A stretch of 63,868 nt of DNA, filler included, from Cladosporium halotolerans (Eukaryota): the NCBI RefSeq assembly GCF_011745625.1. It is 4 parts of 4 records of this genome, joined end to end, with 100 filler letters (N's around TTAATTAATTAA, not from the genome) between each part and the next. Parts side by side here need not be neighbours in the genome. Positions count along the whole stretch, not along the records: positions 51,757 to 63,868 come from NW_027191576.1; 3 more parts are not named here. One strand, given 5' to 3'. The notes under the pieces were generated by a model. The model was not told the origin of the DNA, ran no database searches, and saw nothing but the letters and a program-made list of their open reading frames with translations. Below, in pieces: positions 14,413-63,868 of this stretch (the stretch's first letter is position 1; every line of letters starts with the position of its first letter). Both the position numbers and the translations under genes were made by a program.

Positions 14413-15956
14413 GAGGTGGTGCTGGGTGTGTTCGACGTGCTCGCCGTGCTCGCGACCTGTGCCCCACCGCTGGCACTCGATGCATTAGTCGGGCTTGCCT
14501 GCGTACTACCATACATGTCGACATCCATGGCAGCGCTGCGCTGCTCCTGCCTCGCCTTAGCCTTGTGTTGTCCGATGTGTCGGTAGTGCTGCGGATGCAG
14601 CTTACATGCCCAGTCGAACACCGTGTGTGCATCGCCGCACGCCGGACACTTCGGGTTGTCTTTGTTCGGGCAATCATCCCGGCGGTGACCCTTCGAGCAG
14701 ATGGCACATCTGATCTGGCTGGTGCACGACGCCTGCTTGTGCCCGTACCTGTTGCAGTGGTAGCACGGACCGCTGTTGTCCCTGACGATGAAAGGTGAGC
14801 AGAATGCGTCCGTCGCGCCGAACATAGCCGTGCCTGTACGCAACAAATATTCTGCGTCGATCTTGCTCTTCAGCCAGACTACCATCGATCCTACCTTCTT
14901 CTTTGCATCGACCTTACTGAGCCAGGTGGCCTTCATCACTGTGCAGTCCGCCGTTTCACAGCCATTATCTGCCTTGAAGTCTTTCGCAAAGCCCTTATTC
15001 AGCGTCTTGCCGTCATTTACATCCTGGTCCAGTACACATTGCTTCACGACACTATCGAACTTCACCGGATACCACTGCTCGCCTTTGACGCGTGCCCCGG
15101 TCAGGCTCGATGTCAGCCAGCGAGTGTGCTGCTTCGCTTTGTTGGCTTCGTCTTTGTCGGCAAACACCACATCGATTCTGTCGCCCGGGCCAGGTCGCAC
15201 ACACTTGATCGTTAGCTTTTCTGTGACCTTGTTGACTTTGAGTCCGTCACGTAGGCCATCTCTGATACCATTGTAGTTGTTCTTTGCGCCCTTGAACCTG
15301 CCCATGTCGATAGACACGGCTCGCTCGTCTTGAATCTGTGGCTTCTCTTTGCGGGCTTGTGAACTGCCCGCAGACGTGGGCCTGGATTCGGAGGTCTGCG
15401 AGCCCATGGACGTGCCACCGCTTGCGGCGACCTCGCTGTACGTCTGTTGGCTCGTGTTTCCTTGGATCAGTGCCCGCAAGGCCTTGATCTCCTCGCCCTG
15501 GGTCTTGATCGTCTCCATCAGCTCCTTGTTGCGATCCAGAATCGCCTTGTTGCTTTCCAAGAACGCCTTCTGGCTCTCGGTCATCTCTTTCTGGGCTGCC
15601 ATCAGTTGCTCGATGGTTGCCGCCATCGCCGTCAGCTTGTCGTTGACGCTGTCCTCAGCCTTTCTTTTGCGTGCCGCCGTGGCGGCAGCCTCGAAGCCGG
15701 GCGCAGCTTGCTGCGAGCCCTCGTCTCCCTCCAACACACTCGGTCTGACCCTCATCATCGTCCTCTTCACCCCTACTGCCCTCGCCTTGCCTCTCGTCAC
15801 CATTTGCCACTCCGCACCCCCTCCGCCCTCCGACCCCGCATCAGCTGCGGCGCCGGCGGCGACAGCGGGCGTTGAGCTTTGAGCTCCCACATCTTCCCCG
15901 CGTCGACTACCACCTCCCCCAACAGCAGCAACATCGTTTTGAGTGATTTCATCCAT
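14406..15956 (-). CDS. LINE ORF1 (gag-like nucleic-acid-binding protein)
   Basis: Coiled-coil region plus three Cys/His knuckles: CYHCNRYGHKQASC, CAICSKGHRRDDC, CPACGDAH...C. Confidence 0.92.
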   Translation of the reverse strand: MDEITQNDVAAVGGGGSRRGEDVGAQSSTPAVAAGAAADAGSEGGGGAEWQMVTRGKARAVGVKRTMMRVRPSVLEGDEGSQQAAPGFEAAATAARKRKAEDSVNDKLTAMAATIEQLMAAQKEMTESQKAFLESNKAILDRNKELMETIKTQGEEIKALRALIQGNTSQQTYSEVAASGGTSMGSQTSESRPTSAGSSQARKEKPQIQDERAVSIDMGRFKGAKNNYNGIRDGLRDGLKVNKVTEKLTIKCVRPGPGDRIDVVFADKDEANKAKQHTRWLTSSLTGARVKGEQWYPVKFDSVVKQCVLDQDVNDGKTLNKGFAKDFKADNGCETADCTVMKATWLSKVDAKKKVGSMVVWLKSKIDAEYLLRTGTAMFGATDAFCSPFIVRDNSGPCYHCNRYGHKQASCTSQIRCAICSKGHRRDDCPNKDNPKCPACGDAHTVFDWACKLHPQHYRHIGQHKAKARQEQRSAAMDVDMYGSTQASPTNASSASGGAQVASTASTSNTPSTTSC

Positions 15957-17760: not shown

Positions 17761-17860
17761 NNNNNNNNNNNNNNNNNNNNNNNNNNNNNNNNNNNNNNNN
17801 NNNNTTAATTAATTAANNNNNNNNNNNNNNNNNNNNNNNNNNNNNNNNNNNNNNNNNNNN
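17761..17860. other. Artificial contig linker
   Basis: 44 N + TTAATTAATTAA (stops in all six frames) + 44 N. Confidence 0.97.
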
Positions 17861-23029: not shown

Positions 23030-26000
23030 CCGGGGAAGCTGGTCACGCGGGTAGTTGGTCAGCTCGAGCGAATTCGGCTGGCAATAAATCAATCGATGGC
23101 TGAAATCACTCAAAACGATGTTATTGATGTTGAGGGAGGTGGTGGTGGATGTGGGGAAGGTGCTGGAGCTCGAAGCTCGACGCCCGCTGTCGCCGCCGGC
23201 TTCGCCGCTGATGCGGGGTCGGAGGGCGGAGGGGGTGCGGAGTGGCAAATTGTGACGAGAGGGAAGGCGAAGGCGGGAGGGGCGAAGAGAACGACGATGA
23301 GGGTCATACCGAGTGTGATGAAGGGCGGCGGGGCCTCGTAGCAGGCTACGCCCGGCTTTGAGGCCGTGTCAACTGCGGCGCGTAAGAGAAAGGCTGAGAA
23401 GAGCGTCAACGACAAGCTTGCGGCGATGGCAGAGACCATTGCACAGCTAGTGGCGGCTCAAAGGTAAACGGCGGAGAGCCAGAAGGCGTTTCTTGACAGC
23501 AACAAGGCGCTGCTGGAAAGCAATCATGCGATGATGGAGGAAATCAAGGCACAAGGCGAGGAGATCAGGGCACAAGGCGAGGAGATCAAGGCATTGAAGG
23601 CACTGCTGGAAGGAAGTCCCAGGCCTAATAGCTACAGCGAAGTCCTTGCGGGCGGAGCCACGTCCATGGGCTCACAGACCTCCCAGACCAGGTCAACATC
23701 AGCAGGCAGTTTCCAACTCCCCAAGGAGAAACCACAGGTGCAAGATGAGCGAGCAGTGTCGGTCGACATTGGCAGATTCAAGGGAGCGAAGAATAATTAC
23801 AACGGTATCAGGGATGGCCTGCGCGATGGGCTCAAGGTCAACAAGGTCACGGAAAAGCTGACGATCAAATGTATACGGCCTGGCCCGGGCGACAGAATCG
23901 ACGTAGTTTTTGCCGACAAGGAAGAAGCCAACAAGGCAAAGCAGCACACTCGCTGGCCGACGTCGACCCTTAGCGGCGCTCGCGTCAAAGGTGACCAGTG
24001 GTATCCGGTGAAGTTTGACAGTGTCGTGAAGCAGTGCGTGCTGGACCAGGAAGTGAACGACGGTAAGACGCTAAACAAGGACTTTGCGAAAGTCTTCAAG
24101 GCGGACAAAAGCTGTGAGACGGCGGAGTGCACGGTAATGAAGGCCACCTGGCTCAGCAAAGTCGACGCGAAGAGAAAGGTAGGATCCATGGTGGTCTGGT
24201 TGAAGAACAGAGTCGATGCCGACTATCTGCTGCGAACAGGCACAGCTATGTTCGGCGCGACTGACGCATTCTGTTCACCGTTCATCGTCAGGGACAATAG
24301 CGGCCCGTGCTATCATTGCAACAGATACGGACACGAGCAGGCGTCGTGCACCAGCTACATCAGATGTGCTATATGCTCGAAAGGTCACCGCCGGGACGAA
24401 TGCACAAACAAAGACAGCCCGAAGTGCCTGGCATGCGGCGACGCACACACAGTGTTCGACTGGGCGTGCAAGTTGCACCCGCAGCACTACCGACATGTCG
24501 GACAACAAAGGGCTAGGACGAGGCAGGAGCAGCGCAGTGCTAACATTGACATTGACATGTATGGTAGTACGCAGGCAAGCCCGACCAATGCATCGAGTGC
24601 CAGTGGTGGGGCACAAGTCTCGAGCACGTCGAATGCACCCAGCACTACCTCATGCTAGGGGAGTTCAAGGTGCTTCACGTGAACATTGGCAAGCGAAAGA
24701 CGGCGCACTGGAGTTTATTCTGCGACGAGAGCTTGGCAGATTTCGATGCTCCCGCGGTGGTCGAACCATATATCTATGAGGATATGGACACCGGAGAGCC
24801 GGCCTTTCCAGTCGAGCGGAGCTGGCAATTGTTTGTACCTAATGTGAGGCACGAAGGAGAAGTGCGATACGCTTACCGGGCTGCAATCTGAGTGAACAAG
24901 AGGCACGCTGCACAGCAAGTGGCTGTACCGTCCAGCGACATGGTGGCGGTGACGGTCACCACAAAGCGCGGCGTTGCGCTCATCATGTCCACCTATGACG
25001 TGAAGTCGTCTGAAGGGCAGGCGGTGAACGAAGAGCAGCTGCGGGGCAAGCTGCAAATCGCCAAGGATGCCTACGATGGGTTTAAGAGATATGGAAGAGA
25101 TGGTAAGGTCGACTTGCTATTGTGCGCTGACTTCAACCGTCACCATGAACTGTGGGGTGGTGCTCAGGCGTCTGGAGAGGCCGGTCGTACTGACGAGGCC
25201 GAGGCTATCATCGACTTCATGCAAGAAAATGCACTGACTTCACTGCTTCCGTCGGGGACGGTGACCTGGGAACACTACAACGGATCTACTTGCTCCACGA
25301 TTGACATTTTGCTTGCGAGTGGCAACCTTAGCGAAGTTTGTGAGTACTGTGGCATTCATCAGAATGATCACGGCTCCGACCACAAAGCTATTCGAGCTCA
25401 TTTCGTGATGGACACGACAGAGTATCAGGAGAAGCGACGGAGACGGATGTATGACAAAGCTGATTGGAAGAAGATACGCGAGGAAGTATCGGCAAGAATC
25501 GCAGACGACGCCAGTCTTCACGCGTTATCTGCCAAGGATGAATTGGAGGTGGCCGTGGACAGACTTGAGGCGTTGGTTAACGAGGTTTTCGAAAAGCATG
25601 TCGCAAGGGCGCGACCGTCGCCGTACGCCAAGCGATGGTGGACCGACGAGCTGAAGGCGTTGCGACTGTCGTTGAGCGCAACACGAAACCACTTAACTGC
25701 GGTCAGGCGTAGGGGTGAAGATGTCGCGGAGGCCGCTGCGAGAGTCACAGTGGTGCGACGTGTATACATGGACAAGTCGAACAATGCAAAAGGGAGCATT
25801 GGGTAGATTCTCTTGACAAACGCGACAACATATGGAAGGCCTACGCATACACAAAGACCAGCCGCGCAAACCACGGCATACCTATGCTGAAGGCGGGGGA
25901 CACAGAAGCGACGAGCGACAGAGAGAAGACCGACCTTGTTCTCGCTTCGTTCTTCCCCATCCCACCGCAACCGGTTAATCGAGATGGCACCTCGGTGAAG

Positions 26001-34858: not shown

Positions 34859-34958
34859 NNNNNNNNNNNNNNNNNNNNNNNNNNNNNNNNNNNNNNNNNN
34901 NNTTAATTAATTAANNNNNNNNNNNNNNNNNNNNNNNNNNNNNNNNNNNNNNNNNNNN
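34859..34958. other. Artificial contig linker
   Basis: 44 N + TTAATTAATTAA + 44 N. Confidence 0.97.
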
Positions 34959-37770: not shown

Positions 37771-40700
37771 CTAGGAATCCCTACCCTCAATCCATTTGGT
37801 GGCCCAGGCCTGTATACAGTCGCTCCGCAGAGGCTCCAGCGCCCGCATAAATTCGCTGCTAGCCATAGCTCTATCGATTGCGAACGCACCGAACAGAGGC
37901 TTCTCTGAAAGCAAGCTCTCGAAGAAAGGAAGAAGCTTGACAGCAGGGTTCGCACACATGGCCTGGCTGTCGAGCGGCTCCATTTCAGAAGTAGCTTTCA
38001 ACTTCTGGCACCATTCGCCGTAGGTGACGATCTCTAGCGGCTTGCCTCCACGTTCGCTTGCCACTTTGTCGAGTACAGTCTGAACCGCCGGTAGCAGCTC
38101 TGCCCACGGCGTCGGCTTCGGGTGCACCACGTTCAGGGTTTCATTGCCGCCGGTGGCTATGGTTTTCCTCGACATGTCATGCATAATCCTGGCGGCAGAG
38201 TCCACCGGTATCCATCGCACCTCATTCCCGTCCTCGGCACATCCAAGGCTTTCCGGCAGAACGCCTAGGTGGAGGGAGCTGACGACCAGACTGGGAAGCC
38301 ACTATTGGCGGTTCCAGCCTCTTTTCCGTAGAGCATCCCCGGAGACCTGACCGACCCGTACTGACATGCTCTTGATACCGAGGACTTTCGAGGCATGCGC
38401 CAACATCTTTTCGGCCACGTCCTTTGATTGTCCGTACCCAGTCGACGCCGGCCCGCGTGTGCTGTCGAGGACTGCTTCGGGTACGATCTGATCTTGACCA
38501 GTCCCTCCGGCAGACGCGATGGAAGACACAAATTGGACGGTCACGGGACGGGGGCTGGCGGCTGCGAAGCCGACGAGTCCGACGACGCCATCAAGGCAAT
38601 CGGCGAACGCCTGCAGGGACTTGTTGAAGCCCACAGACCAGGCATTGTGGATGATGCGCGTCACAGATCGTTGGAGCTCTGCGAAGTCAGTGTGCTGCAG
38701 TCCAAGCTGTGGTAGGGCAAGATCCGCCGTAAAGAACTTCACACGGTCTTCGGAAAACGCAAGCGGTAAGCCTCTCTTCCTGTTGCTCTCGATCTGAGCG
38801 TTCTTGGAATCCTTGGACCGGTTCAGGCAGTACACCATCTGCATTCCCCGCTCCAGCAGGGTGTTGAGCAAATGCGAACCCAGCGCTCCAGTCGAACCCG
38901 TCAGAAGGATCGCCCCCTCCGACTTCAGCGTCGATGTGCTTTCCTCCGCTTCCTCTGGCGGCTTCAGCATCAAGCCACTCGGCTCAAAGAGCGCGTCTAT
39001 CTTCGACTGGTAGACGTGCAAGGTCTCCTCCACATCTACCATCCCGACAACGGAACGGCTTTCTTCGAGAGTCGCCCGCGAAAGTGCGAACGCCAATGAG
39101 TCGACGGTAGGGTTGTCGTAGATCGTGCCCGCTTCCACTGACACCTGAGGCAAATTCGATCTCAAAGCTCGTCCGAACTGGATCGCTTGCAAAGAGTCCA
39201 TGCCGTGTCGGAAGAAGTCCGTCGACGGCGACTGAGTCTCGTACCCAACATCGGCCAATGCCCGCCTGACGACGACAGCAGCATCCTCATGCGTCAACGC
39301 CATATTGGGAGCGTTGGATGTGAGAGGGTGGCTTCTGCCTACTGCACCCTCGCCTTCTTCGTACAAGCCAACGATGGCATCTTTGAAAAGTTCCACGGTG
39401 CCACGACGCTGCACCGTGCCTTTGCCGACCCTGATGAACGACTTCGCCGAAGGCACGACGAGTATCTTGGTCTTGGACACTTTCGCGTGTCGCGGGCAGA
39501 GTTTGTTGCACTTCTCCACCATCGGCCAGATGGTATCGATCAACTCTTTCTTGGCAATGTCCGAGAGCGGCTGTACGTCCGTCGGCTCGACGAGAAGCGC
39601 TGCTTCTTGGCGCTCATGTCCAACGACCAGCGCAGCCTGCACCTGCGGGTGCTCAGCCATCTGCTTCTCGAAGCGTGTCGGGTTCGTCTTTTCTCCGTTG
39701 AGAAAGACGATGATGTCGTCAGTCCTGCCCACGTGCGTGAAGGTGTTCGGTAGAGAAGCATGCTTCACGAAAAGATCTTTCGTAGGGTAAGGCTCCACGT
39801 CGTCAAAGTGGCAGAAGACGGGCTGGTATCTCTGACCTGCTCCTCCGGCGGCCTCATCCAGCCTCCGCACTTGTGCCATCTCGTAGTAGTCTGCGTGGTG
39901 GCGGCGAAATTCGACTTTTGCCGCAGGATGAACATGAACATGTTGCCAATCCTCTTCGTGCCTCGGGCCCTTTGCTCGCTGGAGAGGAAAGGCAGCACAC
40001 TCGCTGCTGCCGAGGACTTGGTCCAAACCCATCTTCCGCGCGACCGCTGTCCCTGAGTCACTGGGCACTGAGCCCCCTGTGAAGAACAGGCGGTCCAGTT
40101 TGCTCGCCACTCTGCTCAGGATTTCTGGAGCCCTACCGATCTGGTTGACAAGCACGGGTGAGACAAAGGCCCAGTCGGCCTCTGTGGCGCTCAAAGCCCC
40201 GAGGAACACTTCGAGACCAGGCGGTGTGCCGGCGATCGGGTATATCGGAATGCTGCCGTAGTACGCAGGAACGAGGACCGTGAAGGCTAAGCCGGCAATG
40301 TGAAACGGCGGCAGCGTGACGATGCAGGCACCTTGCTGATAGGTTTGATTCACACTTTCAAATCCGTCAGTCGGAACGAGGCTTTGGGCATGGTAGACCC
40401 GAGAAACGAATTCGTTGGTGTACGTCAAAGCCTTCGGGATACCGGTCGAGCCCGAAGTGTGCAAGACGAATATGGGATCCGTCCTGGCTTCGGCAAAAGT
40501 CCGTCGACGGGCTTTCTCGGGACTTCGTGTTGGCGTGACGTCCAAGAGTTCGTCAAGCGTCGGAATGATAAGCTTCGTGGCTATTGCCCTCTCCACAGCC
40601 TCCGCCCCGGCTGGCCCTGGAAGTGTAGAGATCAGCTTAGAGCAGCCCAGACTCTGGAGCAGAGCCTTGTGAGCTTCGTCGCTGTTGCGAGGACTCGGAA

Positions 40701-40980
40701 AAAATACGGTGTGGCCAGTGTCGATGCATGCAAGCAGTACGATCGTGTACCTCAAATCATTGAGACCCAGGTAAGCAACCCGCTCGAAATTACAGCCACG
40801 CCCAAAGATCGCCGTGATGAGGTCGGCGACATGATCAACCGCGGCGACGAGGGCCGAGTTGGTGACGACGCGATATCCGTTGCGGTAGGCATTCCCTCTC
40901 GGCACTTTGGCAAATGGAGCGTCGGGGTCGCGGCTTGCTCGGTCTCTGATGATGTCGGATAAAAGTACGTCGCAAGACAT
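37771..40980 (-). pseudogene. NRPS-like adenylation-thiolation-reductase (carboxylic acid reductase type) with one in-frame stop
   Basis: LHTSGSTGIPK, GSSE and GRTDD (A domain); FFRHGMDSL (PPant site); ILLTGSTGALG and GYGQSK (R domain). TAG at 38302-38304 in WNRQ*WLPSL, and the same frame continues to 37771. Confidence 0.92.
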
Positions 40981-43900
40981 GATGAAGTGTTGTGAAAGGT
41001 GTGAGTCGCGCCGGAGCTGGGGCGACGAGGTCTGTTATATGTGTCACTGGAGGCAGCACGCAAAAGCACTCGCTTCTCCCACCGCGGCGCGAGAGCACAC
41101 TCCATGCTCCCGTTGAGATCACTATCGCGTTGCCTTGACCCTTGGATTTGGGCGCAAACCTTCGCCCGTATGCGACAAGGGCTCTTTGACACCGGGGAAA
41201 GGCAGCGGTCTCGCTGTGCTACACCCGCTCGACAGCGTGGATGTCTCCATGCCTCCGAGGACGTCCATCACCTGAACACAAGCAGGAGCGGGACAAGACT
41301 TTTCCGCCGGCACAGCGAGGCTGGTATGCAGGGCAGGGAAGCCCAGTGGCCCGACTACAGCTGTTGAACAAGATCCCTTCCAGTCTGTCTGATCCCAACA
41401 CACCATCAAAGTGTGCTTCCAGAGATCCCATCAAGGCTACACCATCCCGGGTATGGGATATCATACAGTACCTTGTGCTTGGATTTCGATCCGGATAACT
41501 TACCAACAGCCCGATCAAATCTTGTCTGACACTGCTTGCCAAATGCTTGCCGGGCCTTCTACCAAGACGCTAGAACCTGGGGCCGTCAGTTAGCGGTCGG
41601 CAAGGATTCCCCCCGCACCGTTGTACGTCAAGCCAATGACAGTCTCTGTGGCCCCACAAATCCGCGGCCGCCCTGACAACACTGCACTCACACACTTGCT
41701 GAACCTTCATCGCAAGGCGATCATGAGCCCTGGCATCGTGACGAAGCTTATCTTTGTTCACCACATGTCGATGAAACGCTTCAGAACGAAAGACCACCGT
41801 CGACGTGGTTGGTCGACGGAATTGGTCAGCATCCAATCTCCTCCGGTTTGCCTCTTCTGCCATGGTGGACATGCTGCGGACGGGGACTCAAGCCGAGACT
41901 CTGGATGAGGAAGGGCCGTGTGGATCGACCCTGCCGAAAGGCTGTGCCGGCCCTGGCCCCGTTCCGGTGCCCGATCAAGACGATCACATAGTTGAGTCAG
42001 GTCAGCCTTCTCGACATCGGCACTTGGTTCGGCAAATCATCAGAAGACTTTGGTACCCCGTGCGGTATTGCAATACCTCTCTTTTCCAAACAGTTCGATC
42101 GACCTTCCTTTGCTCGTTCGAACCGCTGGGCCCGACAGAAGACGATCGATCTCGCGCAACATGCACTGGGACGCGCTGCGCTCCGGTTTCCTTGTGAAGT
42201 TTTTGAGATAGGTGAGTCTGACCAGATTGCATGAAACCAAGTCTCGCGAAACGGAGGCGGCGTTGCTAGTTACGAAGCTTTCGGGCCGTCTGCGCCGATG
42301 CAGCGTGAGTCATGCTTCCGCCAGTGACGTGTTCCAGTCAGTCTGTTAGTCAGCGGTAAGATCGCATTTGAACTCCAAGCGGGCGTCGAAGGTTTAGACG
42401 TGCGTCACCGGCCGCACCAGGCCATCTGACCAAGCCGGAAAGCCCGAGGCCGACTTTTCTAAGGGAATCTGCAAGAGCCCTGACGAGGTTGCCTTCCGTT
42501 TCCACCCTTGACATCGGGCGCTTCCGGGCCTGTGGAAGGAGTACGGCCGCGGCTCGATTTTCGGCAACAGTAGACCTGTCTTTGGAGCGTCGTTTTGGCG
42601 AGGAAGCAGCAGGCCGCGATGCCATCGCTTGACCCTACCTTGCGGACCTTGATCCCTGACGTTGCATCGACCGAGGTGATGGGAATTGCGCGTTTGGTGG
42701 CTGAATGCCATCCACCACGATGGCAGACCTCTTCTTGAAGCACCACCTCGGCCAGCACGGCGGAGGCCGCGCGTTCCGTGGCCCAGTATTGGCTCCAATG
42801 ATGACAAGCCTGTCTGCCAGACGTCATATTTGCTGTCGCTAAGCGCGGTCAAAGACATACCTGGCGCTGTTCGTCATCTGCGCTGCCTGATTCATTTGCC
42901 GAGGCGCTAGGCATTAATCCCCGTTTGTCCTGACTCACGCTCGGCAGTGGGGAGCCTGACGACTGATCGGCACATGAATCAAGACCTGACAGTCGATTGC
43001 CGAACCGAGTTTGAGCTTATCTGCACTCGGCTTAGAGCCAAGGTGCGGAAGCTGCCGTGCGGTGAGCTTACAGCAACGACATCGCAGTTCTGAACACCGA
43101 TTTCGCATTCGAGTGTACGTGCGGAAAGATGTGTCTGCTACAGCAAACCACCGATGCTCGATGCTTTTGCTATTTCGGAGAACATAACTTCACGCAAGCC
43201 CATGAGCTCTGGCATATAGCCGTGATGTGAACGTGCGGCTTGGATTCTGCGCGTCATGTGATGCACGGCACATGACAACGATACTTGAAGAAGGGAAAAG
43301 ACGACTTGTGTACTACAAGTGGACGCTGCTCCTCCCTACTAACCGTCTCTTGTGTCATGGCAGGTTGAAAACGCCCACGCCCCATTGAAGCACTACCTCT
43401 TGGAGCGCCGGTTCCTGACTTGAGTCGACGTGCGGCGAACTTGACAGCTTGCTCCGACAATTGAAGCTCCTGAGTCCTGGTTAGCTATACACATGCCACC
43501 AGCGCCTTTGACTTGGTCCGCAACCCACATGCTCCCACCGCGGTGCACTTCATAGCAGTACGTAGCGGTCGTGAGGGGTCTTCGATGACCTGTCACACGG
43601 CGCGGCCCAGTGAAGACGCTGGCGAGGGACGGAAGGAAGAGATGAGAAAGTGGAGGAGAAGGAAATGAACCACAAGGTGGAGGGGAAAAGGTGGTGGTTG
43701 CAAGGCGCTTGGCCTCCGCCCTAGGTCGCTCAGGTAGCGTCGCACGGATGCCCATCCGTTCTCTGGAAAATACGGCTCTTGCTCCGTGCGTATTAGGCTC
43801 GAGACTGCAGACAGTGCGAAAGCTGCCAAAACACGCTTCACGGAGCTTCGTGACAGAGTGAGGTCGAAGAAAACGCAGCTCCCGCTGTTAACGAGCTGGT

Positions 43901-51656: not shown

Positions 51657-51756
51657 NNNNNNNNNNNNNNNNNNNNNNNNNNNNNNNNNNNNNNNNNNNN
51701 TTAATTAATTAANNNNNNNNNNNNNNNNNNNNNNNNNNNNNNNNNNNNNNNNNNNN
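51657..51756. other. Artificial contig linker
   Basis: 44 N + TTAATTAATTAA + 44 N. Confidence 0.97.
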
Positions 51757-52294
51757 GCCACACAAGGCGTACTTGACGATCTCAATTCTGTAATAGCTGC
51801 ATCCATAGCTACTCGGGTGACGGAGATATACGATGATGAAGCCATCTGTTGACCGCCGCGTCGCGTGAGCGCGCGGTGGGTCTGTGCGCACGGTGGGGCA
51901 GACTTCTAACCCTAAGAATTTCGGAAATGACCACGATTCCTTTGCTGACGTTGACCATGATTCCTTTGCTTTAATGTCTATCGAATTCGCTGGAACTTAG
52001 TAGCTGACCAGAAACAGAACAGGACGCTTTGCATGCCAATTTACAGCTATATAGAGACCATATAGCAGTGTGTATCAGTTGCGACATCTCGGTGTAAGGG
52101 GCAGAGGGGCGCTGCTTATGCGAGGGTTATTCCCCACAAAGCATTGATCCAGCGTCAGGGCTACAGAACACTTCACCAATTGATCAAAGCAGCAGGCGCA
52201 ACCATAATAAAAGCGAAACAAACCTAGTTATGCAGGCCTATCATTCATCTTATAAAGTAGTATGCCAGTACAATTTTTTCGTAGTCCTGACTGA

Positions 52295-52570
52295 GAGGAT
52301 ATGTGCCTTTCACTGAGAGGAACGTCCGAAACGGGTTTAGCGTGTCCAAAACAAAGCGCTCTACCGGTCAAAGGAAACGACGAAAGGAGACGGTAGAAAC
52401 CACGACGTAGCATGCCGATAGGGAGACGAATGAAAGAAGTGAAAGAAGTAAGACTATACGTATGGATATACGGGAGCTTATAGGGCCGTAAAGGGCGTGT
52501 TCGTACACGTTTGCCCGCCCGACCTGATGGCTCTTCCCTGGCAGATCCAACCCTAACCCTGACCTGCATC
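52295..52570. repeat. Copy 1 of a diverged ~275-bp direct repeat with a telomere-like box
   Basis: CCTTTCAC(52306)...CGTCCGAAA...GTTTAGCGTGTCC...AAAGG arrays...AACCCTAACCCTGA(52549). Confidence 0.75.
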
Positions 52571-54692: not shown

Positions 54693-54970
54693 GGAGATAT
54701 CGTCCTTTCACCGAAAGATGCGTCCGAAAGCAGTTTAGCGTGTCCCAAAAACAAGCGTTTGTACAGTGAAAGGTAACGGTGAAAGGTAACGGTGGAAGGA
54801 TGTTATCAGGAAGATGATATTTTGCGACTTTGAGAATTTATAGCAGAATGGTAAGAGTCTTACGAAGCTAGACAAACGCGAAATACATAATACAGAACAC
54901 AGATTTTGATGCAGTGCAGCAAGCAGACGACATTTTCGAGGCGTTTGAACCCTAACCCTGAAATGCTTCC
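54693..54970. repeat. Copy 2 of the diverged ~275-bp direct repeat
   Basis: CCTTTCAC(54704)...CGTCCGAAA...GTTTAGCGTGTCC...AACCCTAACCCTGA(54948). Offsets from copy 1 are 2398 and 2399 bp. Confidence 0.75.
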
Positions 54971-55019
54971 TGATGGAAGCTATCCAATACTCAGATTATA
55001 CTCATGATTTTACGCATCG

Positions 55020-56639
55020 TCAAGCCTCGTCTGACGAATCCTCGACAAACAGAGAGGTATGCTTTCGGATCAGGCCGCGCTTGGGCGGTGATATTCCACC
55101 GATTTGACTGACTTCAACATTACCGTCGCCATAACGGTGATTGGAGATCTTCTCTAGATCCTCCGCACATGGGAGGAGGACATTTTCAAGAATCTTGAAC
55201 GCCCGCAGTGCCTTTGGACGACATAAGTCGCAGCAACGGTGATCGGCGTTGGAATCCTCGTCAAGGGAAGGCATGTCGCGGAAGGCATCGATAAACTTGT
55301 GTAAGAGCAAGGCGACACCAGGCCCGTCGCAGGTGGGCGAAGGCTTTAGTTTCCCGCGGACGGACTGAGACTGTGGTTGCGGCGGTATGGATGCGGCTTG
55401 GCCCGCCGTTGGAGATTGCTGCGTCAGGCCAAGGAGATCTGAGGACTGGGGCCCCGACGATGTGATCTCGACCGGCTTACGGATGAGAGCGTTGCGTGCC
55501 CTCTTCACCATCTCCGTCCCGCCAGTCACTACTCGCCAACCGTCGTCATCATCCCCTCCACCCTCATCGCCTGACGAATTCACCACAGCTGCTTCAGAAG
55601 CATTTCGCTTACGCTTTCTTGGCGTCTTGTAAGGGCGTGCCGCGGAGTAGTCCGGCTTTTTGGAAGGAGGTGAGATAGGCGGGAAGGCGGGGACAAGTTC
55701 CACTCTGAGCCGGTCATGTTTGGGGCTATCGGGAATTGCAGACTGACGAGCGTGTTGGGTGTCAGAGTCGTCACTCGGATCTCTCTCGTTAAGCGAGCGC
55801 ACGTCGTCCAGAATGATGTAACGCGAGCGCGGCAAGCTAATTCGATGCTCGCGTCGAGCGTCTTCGTCGGTGCGACGTCGCATCGACCGGGTCCAGTGAT
55901 CCATGGCTCTCTCGAGAGAATAGCCGCGTCGGGCGTTTGTTGTCATCTGCGAGAGCAAACGCTTGGAACACTCCTCGGCTCGAACCCATCGGGGATCACG
56001 GAGCTCGGTTGGGATCTTCTCGAACCAGTCCGATCCCCATGCGTCTTCGAGGACTTTCAGACTTCTTTGTTTCGACAGATCTGCAGAAGATCCAATGACA
56101 ATGTTTGCCTTCACATAGTCAGAGTTGTCGAGGGTGTCGAGGAAGGTTTCCGCGGAGGTAACTTTGGGGTCTGGATGGCCTTTCCACAAAGAGTGTGCTT
56201 GAACGTAGCGGTAGACCAGAGCGGATGTGAGAGCGGCCTGCTCGGTGGAGTCTGCCAACTCCTCCAACACGATGGACGCGGCACGATGGCCAGCCAAAGC
56301 CTTGTCCCGTCCATTCAGGCACTCCAAGATGGAGCAGTCCGGCTGCGCGGTGCGGAAGCGTCGAGAGAGCTGATCTTCGATGTCGCGTAGCGGAATAAGA
56401 TCCAGTCGGGCCTGCAAATCTCCCGCATCAGCTCGCGCCCGCCGCTCCGTCTGAGATCTCGTGTCTTGTAGCGTCTCATGACGTGGGACTATCGCGCCAG
56501 CGGTCGCCAAGCGAGGTGAAGACTGTGAAGTAGTTGCGGTCGGCGTCGCAGCGGCGCCTGGAGGTGCTGGTTCGCGAAGTGTGGGGCGGAAGCGTGAAAG
56601 CAAATTATCCACGGGGCTGGTCTTGCTCAGGCCAACCAT
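55020..56639 (-). CDS. Hypothetical protein (539 aa), likely nuclear
   Basis: Long intronless ORF with an ordered helical core (ALTSALVYRYVQAHSLWKGHPDP), NLS-like RKRKR and C-terminal HRCCDLC. Divergent from the helicase gene. Confidence 0.75.
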   Translation of the reverse strand: MVGLSKTSPVDNLLSRFRPTLREPAPPGAAATPTATTSQSSPRLATAGAIVPRHETLQDTRSQTERRARADAGDLQARLDLIPLRDIEDQLSRRFRTAQPDCSILECLNGRDKALAGHRAASIVLEELADSTEQAALTSALVYRYVQAHSLWKGHPDPKVTSAETFLDTLDNSDYVKANIVIGSSADLSKQRSLKVLEDAWGSDWFEKIPTELRDPRWVRAEECSKRLLSQMTTNARRGYSLERAMDHWTRSMRRRTDEDARREHRISLPRSRYIILDDVRSLNERDPSDDSDTQHARQSAIPDSPKHDRLRVELVPAFPPISPPSKKPDYSAARPYKTPRKRKRNASEAAVVNSSGDEGGGDDDDGWRVVTGGTEMVKRARNALIRKPVEITSSGPQSSDLLGLTQQSPTAGQAASIPPQPQSQSVRGKLKPSPTCDGPGVALLLHKFIDAFRDMPSLDEDSNADHRCCDLCRPKALRAFKILENVLLPCAEDLEKISNHRYGDGNVEVSQIGGISPPKRGLIRKHTSLFVEDSSDEA

Positions 56640-57114
56640 ACTGTAATCGGAAGTAATGTGGCCGGTCTATGGTGGGTAAAAGCGCAAAAGTGTTGGTGCG
56701 CGGAAAAGCGTGTTTCTCCGCAGTCTGACACGTACGCGCCCGCAGGGCGTGTAAGGGGCTCGTGATGCCAAGGCTGGACGTCGATCCGGACTTGGCGATG
56801 TTCAATGCGTGTGTACAGCCACGTCGACTACTGTGAGGTGTTCGGTGAGGTTTGTGTAAGATCCGAGAGCGGTGGAAAATATGTGCGCACGAAAAATCAA
56901 GCCGTCGCGGGCGGATGGTCGATGTGATGGGCGGTGCAGTTTGACCCATGTCATGATACGCAAGCTACCGCCCCCGGTCGGCGCCATCACTATCACACGC
57001 GCGACTTTCGCGGCGTGACGTAAACAACACGTCGCGCACCACCCCGGCACAAAAAGCTGTTGTTTCGAAGCTTCACACTGAGACATACCGATCACGACGT
57101 TAGCTTGGGCAAAC

Positions 57115-60100
57115 ATGGAGATCGTCTGGTCTCCACCACACAGCCAGGAAGCGACGGCGATAGGGAATTTCCGGTATCTCCCCGAGTATGAGCTGATCGT
57201 TTGCAGGGAACACGCATACGCCGTCCGAAATCTAGATCGACATCTGTTGGACTATCACGTCTACTCGCGAAACGTCCGAAAAGCCGTCTCGCAACGTTTC
57301 GACGGTCTACCGCGGGCTGCACCGGAGAAGGCTTCACTGCCGAAGGCTTACGGACCCCCCATCGAGGGACGGTCTCCTCCCAGGAAGGGATTCGCATGCG
57401 ACGAAGCAAATTGTGGCTGGATAAGCACCCGACGGGCGAAAATCGCGGAACACTGTAAAGCACACGGGTGGAAGTCGAGGCCAGGCGATAGAGAGCATTG
57501 GGCTGACGTGTGGGTCCAATCGTTCTGCTTGACACCTGGAAAACAACGATGGTTCGTCATCCGCGTCGAGGAAGGGGAGACCACGGCAGATGCAGCGCCC
57601 ATGCCCGAAGACGTGCTGGCGCAAAAGAAAGAGATCTTGCGAGACTTCGGCGCACAACGCGCCGAGAGGAAGGCACATCTCGAAGTCATGGATGCCGAGA
57701 TTGCAAAGACAGATCAAACGGGTTGGTGGAAGCGAACGGACTGGGTGACACATCTCGGCAACAGCAACTTGAAGCATCTCGCCCATGCCGCCAGGCTACC
57801 AGGCAGAGATGAGCCCGGGCTGAAGAAGATCGGCGACGCGGTCGATCAAATGATCGAAGATTGTGTCAAGGGGCTGGCATCACTTCCGCAAGAGATTCGC
57901 CGCTGGTTGAAGAGCGCTAAGATGGAGGAGGTGGACCCACGTCCGATGGGCCGCTTGCAGAACCAGGACAGTCAAGACCGATACGCGAATTACTGGAAGC
58001 GATTGATCTGCTATTCGCTGCGGGTCGTTAAGAGCGAACAGCAGCGGCAGGTTGGTGATCCGTCACGGGCAGAGAATGAGACAGACAGCGGAAGCGAAGA
58101 GGAGGAGGAGGAGGAGGAGGAGGAGGATCAACACGCCGAAGACCATGATTCGATCGACGAGGAAGACGAGGAAGAACACGATACGATCGAGGAGGACAAC
58201 GGCGACACGTCCAACCCCATCGTTCTTCGGGACAAACTGAAGGATGCCCGTCGACTTTTCCCATGGAGAGATGGACAGAAAGAGCAAGCCAGACAATTGC
58301 TGTAAGATGTCGAGTCAGGCGGTGGCGTCACGCCAGGAGCGATCTTGGGCTTCAGCATGACATTCATCTTCCACAAGGTATATCACAAGCCGTTCGAGAG
58401 CCCAATGCTACACTTCATGGCCGTTCTCGGCATCGACGAGGAAAACAATCGACTGAAAGAAGCGAACGACTACTCTTACATGCTCGCAGGGTTGGTCTAT
58501 TGCACCCGAGTGATCGGCTTGGAAATCTTGCTGCCGTCAAAGAGCAGGACCCGGCAAGCAGATGCCGAGTACGAGTCATTTCTACAACAGCGAAAGCAGT
58601 TTCTGGCCGACGGGTCCATGAGCGTGGCGAGCAACATGATCAGTCTGCTGGCGTACAGCAAACACATCGCTCTGAACCACGGCAACGCAGGCTCCGTCTT
58701 CTGGATACAAGAAGGCCGAATAATGAAGCTGCACGGCGCCCAGATTGTCATGGAGAAGTTCAAATGGATGATCGGACAAGCGATCGGCGACGCTGAAGAT
58801 CTCTTTTGGCAGAGACTCATGTGGACGACGAATTCGTCCGGTCGATTGGTCATCGACATTGACAATCTCACCGACGACATCACGTTCCGCAGACGAGACG
58901 CTTATTTCGTCGACAACAAGCACAACCGTCTGGCGTCGAAGTGGGAGGACGTCACGATGGACAGGCTGCTCATGTCTAGGCACGGAAAGAAGATGTATCG
59001 CGACGGAAAGTGGCACACACGAATGGTGCGCGAGTATCTACGCGAAGTGGACAAATTCCGGAAGTTGCTTCTGTTCTGCGTTCACGTCACCGGCGGACAG
59101 CCGGCGCGAGGAACCGAAATACTGTCATTCAGGTTCAAAAACGGCTGTGTCCGAGACCGCAACATCTTCATTCTGGACGGGCATGTGATGGCGGTGACTT
59201 TCTACAACAAGACCGAGTCCGAATGGGACATCCCCAAGGTCGTCCCGCGCTTCTTGCCGTGGCGCGTTGGTCAGCTGCTGTCTCTGTATCTGGTCTACGT
59301 GCAGCCGCTCGCCGAATCAATCTCCGTCAAGACGGGCATCGGCTTCGGCTGGAGCGAGTACATCTGGGCTGACAACAAAGGACCGTGGGAGACGCCGAAG
59401 TTAACCAGCATTCTGCGGCAGAGAAGCGCCGAGGGCATCGGACACGCACTGGGCACGCTGCAATTCAGACACGCCGCCGTCGGCATTGGCAGGCAATTCG
59501 TCGGCGACAAATTCGGGGACGGCTACAAAGACGAGACCGGTGAAGTCGAGGAGCCCGAAGTCGAAGAAGAAGAAGATCCGCTGGAGATTTCGGCTGGCAG
59601 AGGATCGGCCGTTGGAGCAAAGAGGTACGCCGTCCGGAGCGACATCGTCAGGCATCTCAGTCAGCGAAACATCGACACTTTCAGGCCGCTGAGTGAGTCG
59701 TGGCATCGCTTCTTGGGGCTACAGAGTCGGAAGGGAGGAGTGCAAGTGAGGGCTCAGAAACGCAAGGGGGGGGAAATGGAGACCCCGGTGGCGAAGAAGG
59801 CGAACATCTCTTGGACAGGCGGCTTGATGACGCCGGCTACGACGTCCCGAAGTGTCGCAACTTCGACACCAAAGGCACCGGCGACCCCGTTTACCGCCGT
59901 GAGCGACTCAAGGGGAAGTGCGATCGTGCAGTCATCGCCGTTGCAGAGATTCGACATTGCTGCAGCCCCGTCGAGCCCGACGATTGCGTCGAGTCCGACA
60001 AGGCCGTCAAAGCCGGGCAGAATGAGGATCGGTCTCGACGAGCGAGAGAAAGCCGTCCGGAAAGCTCTTGGTTTGGCGCAGACGACAGCGGTGGCATACA

Positions 60101-62505
60101 AGTCTGCCGAACAGGAGGAAGCGTTGGAGCGAATCATCAACGGCTCCGACTCCGCGCTCGCAGTTGTGCTACCGACGGGAGGTGGAAAATCGTTGCTGTT
60201 CACCGCCCCCGCTTGCTTGGAGGACCCGGGTATCACAATCGTCATCGTCCCGTATCGACAGCTCATCGAAGAGACTCTGAGCGACGCAAAATCCCGAGGC
60301 ATCCGCGCCGTCGAATGGAGTCGCGACTTGTGTGATCCGGCGGAGATCGTCTTCATCAGTGCCGACAAGCTGGGCAACACTTTCTTCGACTACTCCGCAC
60401 GCATGGCCGAGAAGGGTCTGGTGCGACGAGTGTTCGTGGATGAGTGTCATCTGGCAATCACGGCGCACAGCTGGCGGCCGAGACTGGGCTCGCTGGCGAG
60501 GCTGAGATGCATCGAGGCCCCGACGATCATGCTCACGGCGACACTACCGCTGCACATGGAGACAGATCTCGAGACGACGATGAGATGTGAACTCTCGCTC
60601 ACGCTGATCAGGGCTTGCACCGCACGGAGTACGACGAGATACATCGTCAAAGCCGAGGTCGAAGGCGGGAAGCTGATGGAAGAGGCGATCGAGGTCTGCA
60701 GCAAGCAACTGGAACGATTGCAGCACAAGTCAAAGATGGTCGTCTACTGCCGCTCTAAGGCCGAGTGTGAAGAACTGGCTGGAGCACTAGGCTGCAATTA
60801 CTTCTACTCCGGCTCGGCCGACAACGCAGACGTCATCGAACTGTGGAAAGAGGCCGGCGGGTGCGTGGTGGCGACGACGGCGCTGGGCACGGGTGTCAAC
60901 TACACCGGGGTAGCACTCGCGGTGCACATCGGCATGCCGTACGGCTTCATCGACTTCGCACAGGAGTCAGGCAGGGCAGGCAGGGGCGGCGAGGTCGTCA
61001 CATCACTGATACTGCTCGAGAAGAATTGGCAGACAAGAGAAGCAGCGAAGCGCACGGCGATGCGGCGAGAATGGACCCCAGACGAGAAGGCGATGCTCGA
61101 CTTTGTCAACACAGACGACTGCCGCAGACTGGTGCTCGGGGGATACTTCGACAGGAAGCCCGCCCAAGATTGCATCTCGGGAGAGATGGAGAGATGCGAT
61201 CGATGCCGCAGCGGAGTCTCCGACTGGGCTCGGTCAGAGAAGGAGATGTCACAAGAACGAGAGATCGTGGAGGACGCTCTGGATCAGATCACGAACGGAT
61301 GCCCCGTCTGCTGGGTGACTTCGGCTTTGGGCAGCGGTCTTGCATGGCTACACGATGGCAAGACTTGCACGCATCGTCAGACGATCCCGATCGACACCGG
61401 CGACACTTTGAGCATGAGCGAAGACGCTTGCGATCGGTTCCGCTCGACGATCCGATATCTGGACGGCGGGAAGACTTGTCACGCTTGCGGCATCAGTCAA
61501 AAGATGTGCCGGACGAGGGAGAGCGGACAAGGTGGTTGTCAGTGGCCGAGGGTGGCACCCGCGATTCTCATGTTGGCGACAACAAACACGTTCGGCCGAA
61601 ACATCATCAGGCAGGTCGGTTATGTGGGTGAGTCGGGAGATTGGAAAGGGTATGCTCTCTGGCTCGGTCAGCCGCACCGTCTACGATTGTGGGGAGAACT
61701 GGTCAGCAACTCGATGGTGGTGATCAAAGACCTCTTGATCTACTGCAAGCAAGAGATGAAGACGGAGCCGTGGGACGCCGAGAGCATGGGCGACTTGGAT
61801 GAGCTCGAGCACGAGCATGAAAGAGGAGGGCTACCCGTGGAAAACACCGATGCAAACGACGCGACCGGCAGCAGTGACGTCTTCGGCAGCGACGTCTTCG
61901 ACGAGTTCACGGAAGGCAACGGGGACGGCGCAGACGAAGGCGGAGACAACGAAGGCGGTGAAGAGAAGGAAGAAGAGAACGACGTCGCTGAAGCCGCTCC
62001 GGCGCAGCGATACTGGAGGCGGCAATCTCGAGTGATCGAATCCGTTCTCGACCCGAACCGCTTGCGAGAGCTGACGGACGAATGGCACGAGCAATGCGCC
62101 GTGTGCAAGGCGAGCGGTAAGATCGCTCGAGGACACGGGCACTGGTCGGCTTGCACCCGCATGCAGGGCGTGAAAGAGAAGATGACGGAAGCGATCAAGA
62201 TACTGGAGGGAGTTCAGTTCGCTAGTTTTGCTCACTGCAAGTGGTGCTACAGATCTCAAGCCGTTTGCGAGATGTGGGCACGAAGCGTCAATTTGCAAGG
62301 AAGGGCGGTGTTCAAGAAGAAGCCCGGAGTCGACCGCAAGTACGGGAACTGGGTGTTGGAAGCTACTGCTGCATTTCTGGTTCTCGGGGCGGACGGCGGT
62401 CTCGAAGAATGGAAGGCTCGCGACCCGTCGCTGGCGGCGTTCAAGCAAGAAATGGGTACGAAACACAGGCGAGGCGAGGTGGAGTTCAGTGGGCTTTTCG
62501 GATAA
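57115..62505 (+). CDS. DUF3505-like Zn finger + putative tyrosine-recombinase core + RecQ-family helicase (telomere-linked-helicase type); one in-frame TAA
   Basis: ORFs 57115-58305 and 58345-62505 share a frame. N-terminal C/H fingers; GGQPARGTE, YNK, QFRHAA and KRY; helicase motifs LPTGGGKS, VDECH, LTATLP, VYCRS, ATTALGTGVN, QESGRAGR; CRR...CDRC Zn site; C-terminal Cys clusters. Confidence 0.88.
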
Positions 62506-62930
62506 CGTTACTTTTACACTTGGGCTTGAGCCGGGGAAGGCCGCTTATATAAGAAAGAAAGTGCGAGACCGCTTAGGTTGGGAAAAGAATGCGAGACCGT
62601 TTATTGCACAACCGTTCAGGTGTCGCGAGAAGAGGTAGGTTATCTAACCGTTCAGGTGTCACGAGAAAGGGCAGGTTCGCTGGCCGAGCCGCTCATTCAG
62701 ATGAAGCGTCGCCGTAACAGGGAACCGGAAGTGGGACGAGGGTGATTGAGGCAATAATAACAGACCGCTCAGATCGGGGAAGAAAGTATGGAGGGATGGA
62801 ACAGCGAAGCAGACTGCTTCAGCAGAACACCGGTTAGAGGGAACGAAGGCGGTTGGGAGAAGAAGCGACGGGGTCAGCGGAGCGTACAGGTGTCGATGGA
62901 AGATCGTTCGAGTCAGGAAAGGAATGCGGA

Positions 62931-63232
62931 CACCGCTTAGGTCAGGAAAGGAGACCGCTTACGGTTAGGCAAAGAAATGAAAGACCGCTTAGGTGAGGAG
63001 AGAAAGTGTGAGACCGCTTAGGTTAGGGAGGAAAATGGAAGACCGCTTAGGTTAGGGAGGAAAATGTGAGACCGCTTAGGTTAGGAAGGGAAATGAAAGA
63101 CCGCTTAGGTTAGGAAGGGAAATGAAAGACCGCTTAGGTTAGGGAGGAAAATGCGAGACCGCTTAGGTTAGGGAGGGAAATGAGAGACCGCTTAGGTTGG
63201 GGAAGGAAAGTGAATGGAGAACCGCTTAGTTC
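62931..63232 (+). repeat. 29-bp tandem array containing TTAGG-TTAGG(G)
   Basis: ACCGCTTAGG starts at 62984, 63013, 63042, 63071, 63100, 63129, 63158 and 63187. Degenerate copies at 62932, 62954, 63221 and ~62541-62590. Confidence 0.93.
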
Positions 63233-63497
63233 AGAAAGGAAAAGGTGGCACGCCCGTACGGAGGCATAGGGCGGACCGAAGTGGCATGATGGGAAAAAGA
63301 GATTGAAGGCAGACATTCAGACGTAACAGGTTGAGGGTTCATCGAAGTTGGGGGTTAGATTTGTTCGAGTGTTCGAAGGCATAAGCCGTCAGTGCATCGT
63401 TTCATTGCATCGTTTCAGTGTGTCAGTATCACAGATGGAGTGTCGGAAAGTCGGGACAGGCGTGAGGGTTAGGATTGATAGAGGGTCCGGTTGGAGA

Positions 63498-63868
63498 CAG
63501 GGTGGGCAGTGAACGAGCACTGAACAGTTCGTTCGGTTCGTTCGGACCCCGTTGAACAAACGAACAGATGACTGATTACATAATCGATCGAATGAACAAA
63601 TATACCTGTTCGTTCAGCATGTTCAGGGTGTTCAGTGTGATGATAAGACAAACCCAACCCTAACCCTCGATCACCGGGACGGGCATCCCGCGCAAAGCAG
63701 CCATGGCTTGTGAGATCACCCGGGAAGGAATATGCGGGGAACGCGACCGTGTCGCGACTGCCCGCGCGGTAGACCACTTCATGTTCCACAAATTACAGCA
63801 TGAGCGTCCAATCCGACTCTCAAGGTTCAACAAACCCGCAGCCAAGCGTTCCACACGGAGCTGAGCAA
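63498..63868 (+). mobile_element. Probable left end of a hAT-like element
   Basis: Starts CAGGGTGGGCAG, followed by dense GAAC/GTTC subterminal repeats in both orientations and AACCCTAACCCT at ~63656. Right end is outside the window. Confidence 0.5.

Follow-up and report, generated by a model that had tools for sequence, protein, structure and literature searches.

A telomere-linked RecQ helicase gene of Cladosporium halotolerans with a middle module predicted to take on a tyrosine recombinase fold

The gene and its domains

The window analyzed here is a stretch of 63,868 nucleotides that joins four parts of four records of the Cladosporium halotolerans genome (NCBI RefSeq assembly GCF_011745625.1), with 100 filler letters between each part and the next. 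[quoted passage not shown] According to the accessible portions of the literature, records of TLH genes at the ends of fungal chromosomes go back to the late 1990s. The subject of this work is the middle module of the encoded protein, for which a recombinase-like fold and a conserved set of candidate active-site residues are described. The gene occupies one frame of 1796 codons with one internal stop, and a word-indexed search with the middle region alone retrieves 271 proteins, most of which carry an OrsD domain together with the helicase domains DEAD and Helicase_C.

Open reading frame (ORF) calling splits the gene into two ORFs of 396 and 1386 residues that share the same frame. They are separated by a single in-frame TAA (codon 397, positions 58303-58305, plus strand), which interrupts an otherwise continuous frame between the zinc finger and the recombinase-like module. 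None of the nine relatives inspected has a stop at this position; they carry K, R, D, N or S instead, which means that the window copy is broken at this point. Apart from the one nonsense codon the gene is intact. A 54-nucleotide intron between the two ORFs (GTAAGA...CAG, 58302-58355) was considered and rejected because the ORFs are in the same frame, relatives encode its 18 codons uninterrupted, and no contig skips it. The stretch is present in near-identical form in 16 sequencing runs (at least half of the sampled words), out of 20 that carry it from 16 studies, many of which are air, dust, and urban metagenomes. In the contigs of four runs from four studies, the TAA and the following 54 bases show neither a difference nor a skip, with one of the four runs possibly being the source of the window and hence not counted as independent.

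The TLH protein is built from an N-terminal OrsD zinc finger, a middle module of about 455 residues, a RecQ helicase, and a cysteine-rich tail. The C2H2-type zinc finger (57166-57465, plus strand) corresponds to residues 18-117 of the first ORF and matches the Pfam family OrsD (PF12013) above its curated cut-off (E 3.1e-10, 41 bits versus 26.6). No Pfam family matches the first ~480 residues of the long ORF. These residues contain the middle module, whose helical N-terminal part (58357-58686, plus strand) is a possible core-binding equivalent and is modeled by AlphaFold with a predicted local distance difference test (pLDDT) of 90-96. It is followed by a part resembling the catalytic domain of the tyrosine recombinase/topoisomerase IB fold (58687-59721, plus strand), which is the “TLH domain” of the literature. 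The core of a RecQ-type superfamily 2 helicase and a RecQ zinc-binding motif span 60109-61209 (plus strand, residues 589-955 of the long ORF) and are recognized both by Pfam (DEAD 1.5e-11, Helicase_C 1e-09, RecQ_Zn_bind 9.2e-06) and by comparison with solved RecQ-family structures in the PDB, namely BLM (E 1.3e-26) and E. coli RecQ (4.4e-23). These matches establish that the N-terminal zinc finger and the RecQ motifs reported in a preliminary description of the locus are real. The C-terminal region (61210-62502, plus strand) is rich in cysteines, with conserved Cys/His columns in the alignment, and has no assignable family: its matches are sub-threshold, among them a weak one to Endonuclease_7 (recombination endonuclease VII) with E 0.039 when the long ORF is searched and 2.2 when only this region is, and a comparison with PDB sequences gives no match.

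Conservation and predicted fold of the middle module

The catalytic set of tyrosine recombinases is R-K-HxxR-H/W-Y. The preliminary description had picked out a series of motifs in the middle module that it read in this order, and all of the motifs and codons lie where it had placed them. The motif HVTGGQPARGTEIL is located at 59083-59124 and contains an arginine codon at 59107-59109, which is followed by a YNK motif with a lysine codon at 59209-59211, PRFLP at 59245-59259, LLSLYL at 59275-59292, LQFRHAA at 59458-59478 with Arg-His codons at 59467-59472, and finally SAGRGSAVGAKRY at 59590-59628, which ends with a tyrosine codon at 59626-59628. Conservation of these residues was followed in two sets of homologs, an alignment of 99 sequences (numbered by the folded fragment, to which 4 is added for the numbering of the long ORF) and a set of 64 homologs with less than 40% identity and 449 scored columns. 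Owing to this restriction, close relatives cannot carry the result obtained from the second set.

The homolog alignment that the preliminary description had proposed returns near-invariance of all four residues it named. The candidate first catalytic arginine opens the sequence Arg-Gly-Thr-Glu (59107-59118, plus strand) and is kept in 95/99 sequences, with the glutamate at +3 in 97/99. The same R-x-x-E pattern is found in Cre, and lambda Int has an aspartate at +3 (both from fetched sequences). The candidate catalytic lysine (59209-59211, plus strand), placed where beta strand 2 ends and ahead of the connection between strands 2 and 3, is conserved in 95/99 sequences and in 61 of 63 distant homologs. 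In the Arg-His pair (59467-59472, plus strand), which would supply the second catalytic arginine and then a histidine, the arginine is kept in 90/93 and the histidine in 75/93 non-gap sequences; the arginine is also retained in 60 of 62 distant homologs. An acidic loop (59530-59598, plus strand) separates the helix of the second arginine from the His/Arg-Tyr segment; it is variable and gapped in the alignment and modeled with low confidence (pLDDT <50 over model residues 392-427). Nine residues before the tyrosine, at 59599-59601 (plus strand), the window encodes an arginine where most of the family has a histidine (His 53, Arg 30 of 88 non-gap sequences; His in 53/57 distant homologs). By its distribution in the alignment, this arginine is a peculiarity of the clade to which the window belongs. 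The candidate nucleophilic tyrosine (59626-59628, plus strand) is present in 88/89 non-gap sequences and in 57 of 58 distant homologs. Among the 449 columns of the distant set, the tyrosine ranks 4, the glutamate 6, the lysine 9, the second arginine 10, the first arginine 15, and the histidine 17. The spacing of nine between the histidine and the tyrosine equals that of Cre (W315-Y324) and lambda Int (H333-Y342), as confirmed in the fetched sequences.

For the structural side, AlphaFold2 was run without templates on 99 and 83 aligned sequences. The model of residues 1-476 reaches a pLDDT of 87.6 and a predicted template modeling score (pTM) of 0.83, and that of the catalytic part alone a pLDDT of 87.7 and a pTM of 0.87, with uncertainty only at the acidic loop and the tyrosine-bearing segment. 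In Foldseek searches against the PDB, ranks 1-17 and, in another search, all matches listed to rank 30 belong to tyrosine recombinases or topoisomerase I; the probabilities reach 0.98, and no E-value is at or below 0.001. The fold-comparison figures are 10.5 and 10.4 for a second XerA, 10.3 for XerH, 9.9 and 9.8 for the C-terminal domain of XerD, 9.8 and 9.7 for Cre, 9.5 and 9.3 for Brujita integrase, 8.9 and 9.3 for XerD, 8.8 for a staphylococcal integrase, and 8.8 and 8.6 for the integron integrase. The middle module of the TLH protein is accordingly listed here as a predicted tyrosine recombinase/type IB topoisomerase fold, which is what the structural check by AlphaFold and Foldseek suggested in the preliminary description has recovered. 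Since the alignments with the two-domain recombinases XerH, Cre, IntI, Tn1549 Int, and lambda Int begin at model residue 1 and extend over 214-242 residues, the model further suggests that the helical N-terminal part corresponds to their core-binding domain.

In the model, the first arginine sits at the N-terminus of a short helix that begins directly after it. The lysine directly follows strand 276-283, which is strand 2 of a three-stranded sheet, and precedes strand 294-299. The second arginine is found within the opening turns of a helix, and the tyrosine lies where a short helix ends, close to the C-terminal boundary of the module. Alignment and model together show that the family keeps Arg-Lys-Arg-(His)-Tyr in the right order and on the right predicted secondary-structure elements. 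The putative active-site set comprises the arginine of R-x-x-E, the lysine after beta strand 2, Arg-His, a histidine, and the tyrosine nine residues later, with only the first histidine of HxxR missing.

The module is widespread. An exhaustive search with the middle region yields 2885 cluster representatives at E<=0.001, 164 of them at E<=1e-30, and members of the family are named from Friedmanniomyces, Claviceps, Aureobasidium, Exophiala, Arthrobotrys, Morchella, Xanthomendoza, Fusarium, and Aspergillus; a homolog from Neolecta is named “ATP-dependent DNA helicase tlh1” by its source. When 39 distant members were annotated with Pfam, 24 had helicase domains, 11 had OrsD only, and 4 had neither. 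A metagenome scan yielded three short related loci. A search seeded with the Neolecta protein returns many proteins of ~800-950 residues that combine OrsD and the module without a helicase, some of which are encoded on megabase contigs of Aspergillus genomes. These helicase-less relatives keep the arginine, glutamate, lysine, second arginine, and tyrosine in 27/27 cases and the histidine in 26/27, and in 25 of 27 the protein ends 32-103 residues past the tyrosine. Free-standing tyrosine recombinases likewise end shortly after their tyrosine. Because this form with a zinc finger and the module but no helicase exists, the TLH protein resembles a zinc-finger recombinase of this type to which a RecQ helicase and a cysteine-rich tail have been fused. 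The helicase-less family carries no other label at present than “C2H2-type domain-containing” or hypothetical. One relative of the module, P0288 from Fusarium oxysporum (2189 residues), is annotated with a hAT-dimerization domain and OrsD, which could reflect either the merging of gene models or a fusion to a hAT transposase.

Repeats, transcription, and neighbors of the window copy

A tandem array of 29 nucleotides in 8.9 copies, which contains TTAGGTTAGGG, is located just 3′ of the gene (62951-63209, plus strand). The telomere-like motif CCCTAACCCT occurs three times on the plus strand (52551-52560, 54950-54959, and 63658-63667), compared to 0.04 occurrences expected, and this count was reached in 0 of 100 shuffles. 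Two of the motifs bracket the TLH gene and the ORF upstream of it. The first two sit in partly similar direct repeats of 65 and 22 nucleotides that are ~2.4 kb apart.

In the contigs, the depth over the segments 62278-62680, 63487-63868, and 51800-52202 exceeds that over the gene many-fold; for the first two, which lie just 3′ of it, depth rises up to 264 versus 10 in DNA runs. Contigs of three runs branch at 62654 into one common alternative sequence, which suggests a dispersed repeat boundary on the 3′ side of the gene. Contigs of two runs join 63497 back to 63245, and some copies or strains probably carry this 253-base unit as a tandem duplication.

Diverged fragments that match conserved stretches of the gene are present in the same runs. 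Joints inside the gene have short sides (20-26 letters) and most likely reflect diverged paralogs or other organisms. One diverged contig differs from the window at 31 positions within 60954-61215; as 26 of these are third codon positions, it points to a related copy under coding constraint. In a run guessed to be RNA, the contigs begin at 57074 and end at 62768 and leave the multi-copy flanks uncovered, which is a weak hint of an unspliced transcript of the TLH gene. Upstream, a 539-codon ORF without a Pfam family is encoded on the minus strand (55020-56639), divergent from the TLH gene, and one contig of the same run guessed to be RNA (54878-56887) covers it at a greater depth than the TLH gene.

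The remainder of the window is rich in transposon remains, comprising ORFs for a non-long-terminal-repeat (non-LTR) reverse transcriptase and an endonuclease and a DUF3723 ORF (loci at 10438-14484 on the minus strand, and 24892-25806 and 8861-10156 on the plus strand). Reading by eye suggests a retrotransposon reverse-transcriptase fragment at the window start. A gene for a nonribosomal peptide synthetase (NRPS)-like reductase is found at 38302-41034. Three pairs of 44-base N runs (17761-17860, 34859-34958, and 51657-51756), ~17 kb apart, look like masking rather than biology.

Mechanism, rival explanations, and known systems

On the evidence of conservation and the predicted fold, the interpretation that is preferred with modest confidence takes the middle module of TLH proteins as a two-part DNA breaking-rejoining module with a conserved active-site set, which would let a subtelomeric unit recombine into or between chromosome ends. 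The conserved residues are likely to be catalytic; catalysis is favored because the tyrosine and the phosphate-binding set rank with the best conserved positions of distant homologs, unlike in the inert Ndc10. With less assurance, the activity may be to exchange strands site-specifically at telomere-like repeats and thereby to move or reshuffle TLH units. In such a reaction, the zinc finger and the helical subdomain would place the enzyme on repeat DNA with telomere-like motifs. Subsequently, the tyrosine would form a covalent 3′-phosphotyrosyl link and exchange strands, and the fused RecQ motor would unwind or branch-migrate the joint. As the outcome, a subtelomeric unit containing the TLH gene would recombine into, or between, chromosome ends.

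A more far-reaching version is possible and at present rather doubtful. It holds that TLH genes are not host helicases and could instead be the recombinase genes of old and widespread telomere-targeting tyrosine-recombinase elements, in which a zinc-finger recombinase gained a RecQ motor. Such elements would integrate at telomere-like repeats and build or reshuffle fungal subtelomeres, and the helicase-less relatives would be their free-living ancestral transposon form.

Several observations weigh against a recombinase function of the module or of the window copy. At the position of the HxxR histidine the window has a leucine and the family L, Q, S, R, A or H (rank 346/449), and the window copy additionally carries an arginine in place of the second histidine of the family. 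Both deviations had been noted as caveats in the preliminary description: LQFR in place of HxxR does hold throughout the family, whereas GR in place of GH turns out to be specific to the clade. The tyrosine-bearing segment is modeled with low confidence (pLDDT <50 in one model, about 56-59 in the other), and the proposed residue-by-residue equivalence to the recombinase active site is drawn from order, spacing, and secondary structure rather than from superposition. Pfam finds no recombinase family, including Phage_integrase (PF00589), in the window protein (E<=1) or in 30 family members (E<=10); the profile of the family has 0 matches among PDB sequences at E<=10; and comparisons by hhalign with Cre, lambda Int, and a 78-sequence XerD profile are not significant (P 0.075-0.4). 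One local hhalign alignment pairs the arginine, glutamate, and lysine with R148, E151, and K172 of XerD (P 0.12, not significant), and the long and global alignments are out of register.

Other points of this kind concern the window copy and its surroundings. Its premature stop is present in the contigs of four runs, and because of this in-frame TAA and the arginine that replaces the histidine of the family the copy is probably inactive or truncated. The preliminary description had proposed a single-chain enzyme of zinc finger, recombinase, and helicase; the combination and the predicted fold stand, and the window copy departs from it by its nonsense codon. Contig depth, which is not a copy number, is the same over the gene as over its flanks in four runs (e.g., 10.2 versus 9.5-11.2), and the gene looks single-copy in its genome. 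A circular or excision junction from the 3′ flank back to the 5′ flank was not seen in the contigs of four runs, which is weak evidence as contigs cannot show rare forms. Neither result supports the earlier proposal that such helicase genes may be the core of a self-mobilizing or subtelomere-recombining element. A terminal telomere (TTAGGG) array is absent within the window.

The main rival to strand exchange is a swivel resembling that of topoisomerase IB, in which the module would nick and reseal DNA and relieve torsion or dissolve joint molecules for the RecQ motor; the protein would then be a host telomere-maintenance factor whose copies spread by ordinary subtelomeric homologous recombination. 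The missing HxxR histidine fits this explanation; type IB topoisomerases also lack it, and RecQ helicases are known to partner with a topoisomerase. The structural scores of type IB topoisomerases are below those of recombinases, and the module shows no sign of their clamp-like cap domain; the swivel is regarded as unlikely. The module could also be a catalytically dead, recombinase-derived domain that binds DNA and tethers the helicase to subtelomeric repeats, similar to Ndc10, a kinetochore protein that is an inert derivative of a recombinase. A pure binding domain would have no reason to retain a nucleophile and a phosphate-binding set, and among the homologs below 40% identity the tyrosine is in the top 4 and both arginines, the lysine, and the histidine are in the top 17 of 449 columns, which makes this explanation improbable.

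A chance resemblance, under which the protein would be a RecQ helicase with an unrelated N-terminal extension of another fold, draws on the fact that every sequence-profile test is negative or not significant and that Foldseek E-values stay above 0.001. The look-up with a protein language model, which places Phage_integrase and NDC10_II clusters first, has a score of 0.85 and counts as a lead only. The order of the residues that the preliminary description had recognized nevertheless goes beyond chance, given five positions within the top 17 of 449 columns and a predicted fold that agrees. Chance is largely refuted in this analysis and is considered very improbable.

In the accessible part of a 2024 preprint (bioRxiv 10.1101/2024.02.27.582403), the genes are characterized by C2H2 motifs, RecQ motifs, and, upstream of the helicase, a TLH domain, which is given no function. 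A Botrytis preprint and a 2025 Fusarium paper, in their available portions, handle it likewise and assign it no function; in the parts of the 2024 and 2025 papers that could be consulted, the domain figures as no more than a conserved motif and the genes are regarded as host helicases. What TLH genes do in the cell was called unknown in the accessible text of a 2006 paper (PMC1635262). A full-text literature search, with most subscription journals outside its reach, yielded no paper connecting TLH genes with tyrosine recombinases, and the failure of sequence methods is probably why the relationship is absent from the searched literature. The consulted papers give the TLH domain neither a fold nor a function; here it is assigned to a predicted tyrosine recombinase fold.

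A recombinase fold with a conserved tyrosine offers a concrete and falsifiable mechanism for the occurrence of TLH units at many chromosome ends, where they are arrayed and separated by short telomere tracts. If it is true, TLH genes may cut and rejoin DNA besides unwinding it, and the recombinase-helicase fusion would join the known kinds of eukaryotic DNA breaking-rejoining enzymes. The finding additionally points to a large helicase-less family that combines a zinc finger with the putative recombinase fold.

Among known systems, the window gene is closest to the fungal TLH genes (Magnaporthe TLH1, fission yeast Tlh1/2, and those of Ustilago, Metarhizium, Fusarium, and Botrytis), with which it shares the order of N-terminal C2H2 motifs, TLH domain, and RecQ. 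In Magnaporthe, as far as the accessible text reports, tandem repeats with telomere-like motifs flank the TLH genes, and the unit stops abruptly inside one of these repeats (PMC1635262). A tandem repeat with a telomere-like motif beside the gene is thus a feature that Magnaporthe, in the same portion of that paper, has in common with the 29-nucleotide TTAGGTTAGGG array of the window (PMC1635262). Fusarium regions containing TLH genes are drawn with interstitial telomere repeats in a figure legend of the 2025 paper. Multi-copy subtelomeric TLH units and their presence/absence behavior are taken from the consulted portions of the literature on other fungi only. Compared to the TLH genes of the literature, the window copy looks single-copy and carries a nonsense codon, and adjacency to a telomere is not seen in the window.

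Compared to recombinases of the Xer/Cre type (XerA, XerD, XerH, Cre, and phage integrases), the module has ~7-17% identity and no detectable profile similarity. Unlike these enzymes, it has no conserved HxxR histidine and contains an inserted acidic loop of ~20-30 residues ahead of the His/Tyr segment. It is also joined to a zinc finger and, in the majority of members, to a RecQ helicase and a cysteine-rich tail.

Fungal transposons with tyrosine recombinases exist in the form of Cryptons and Starship captains. The Pfam families of these proteins, DUF3435 and DUF3504, have no match at E<=10 in 30 members of the TLH family. Cryptons and Starship captains (DUF3435) are likewise fungal proteins of recombinase fold that reside on repeated DNA, and the helicase-less form with its zinc finger and module matches a stand-alone transposon recombinase in size and layout.

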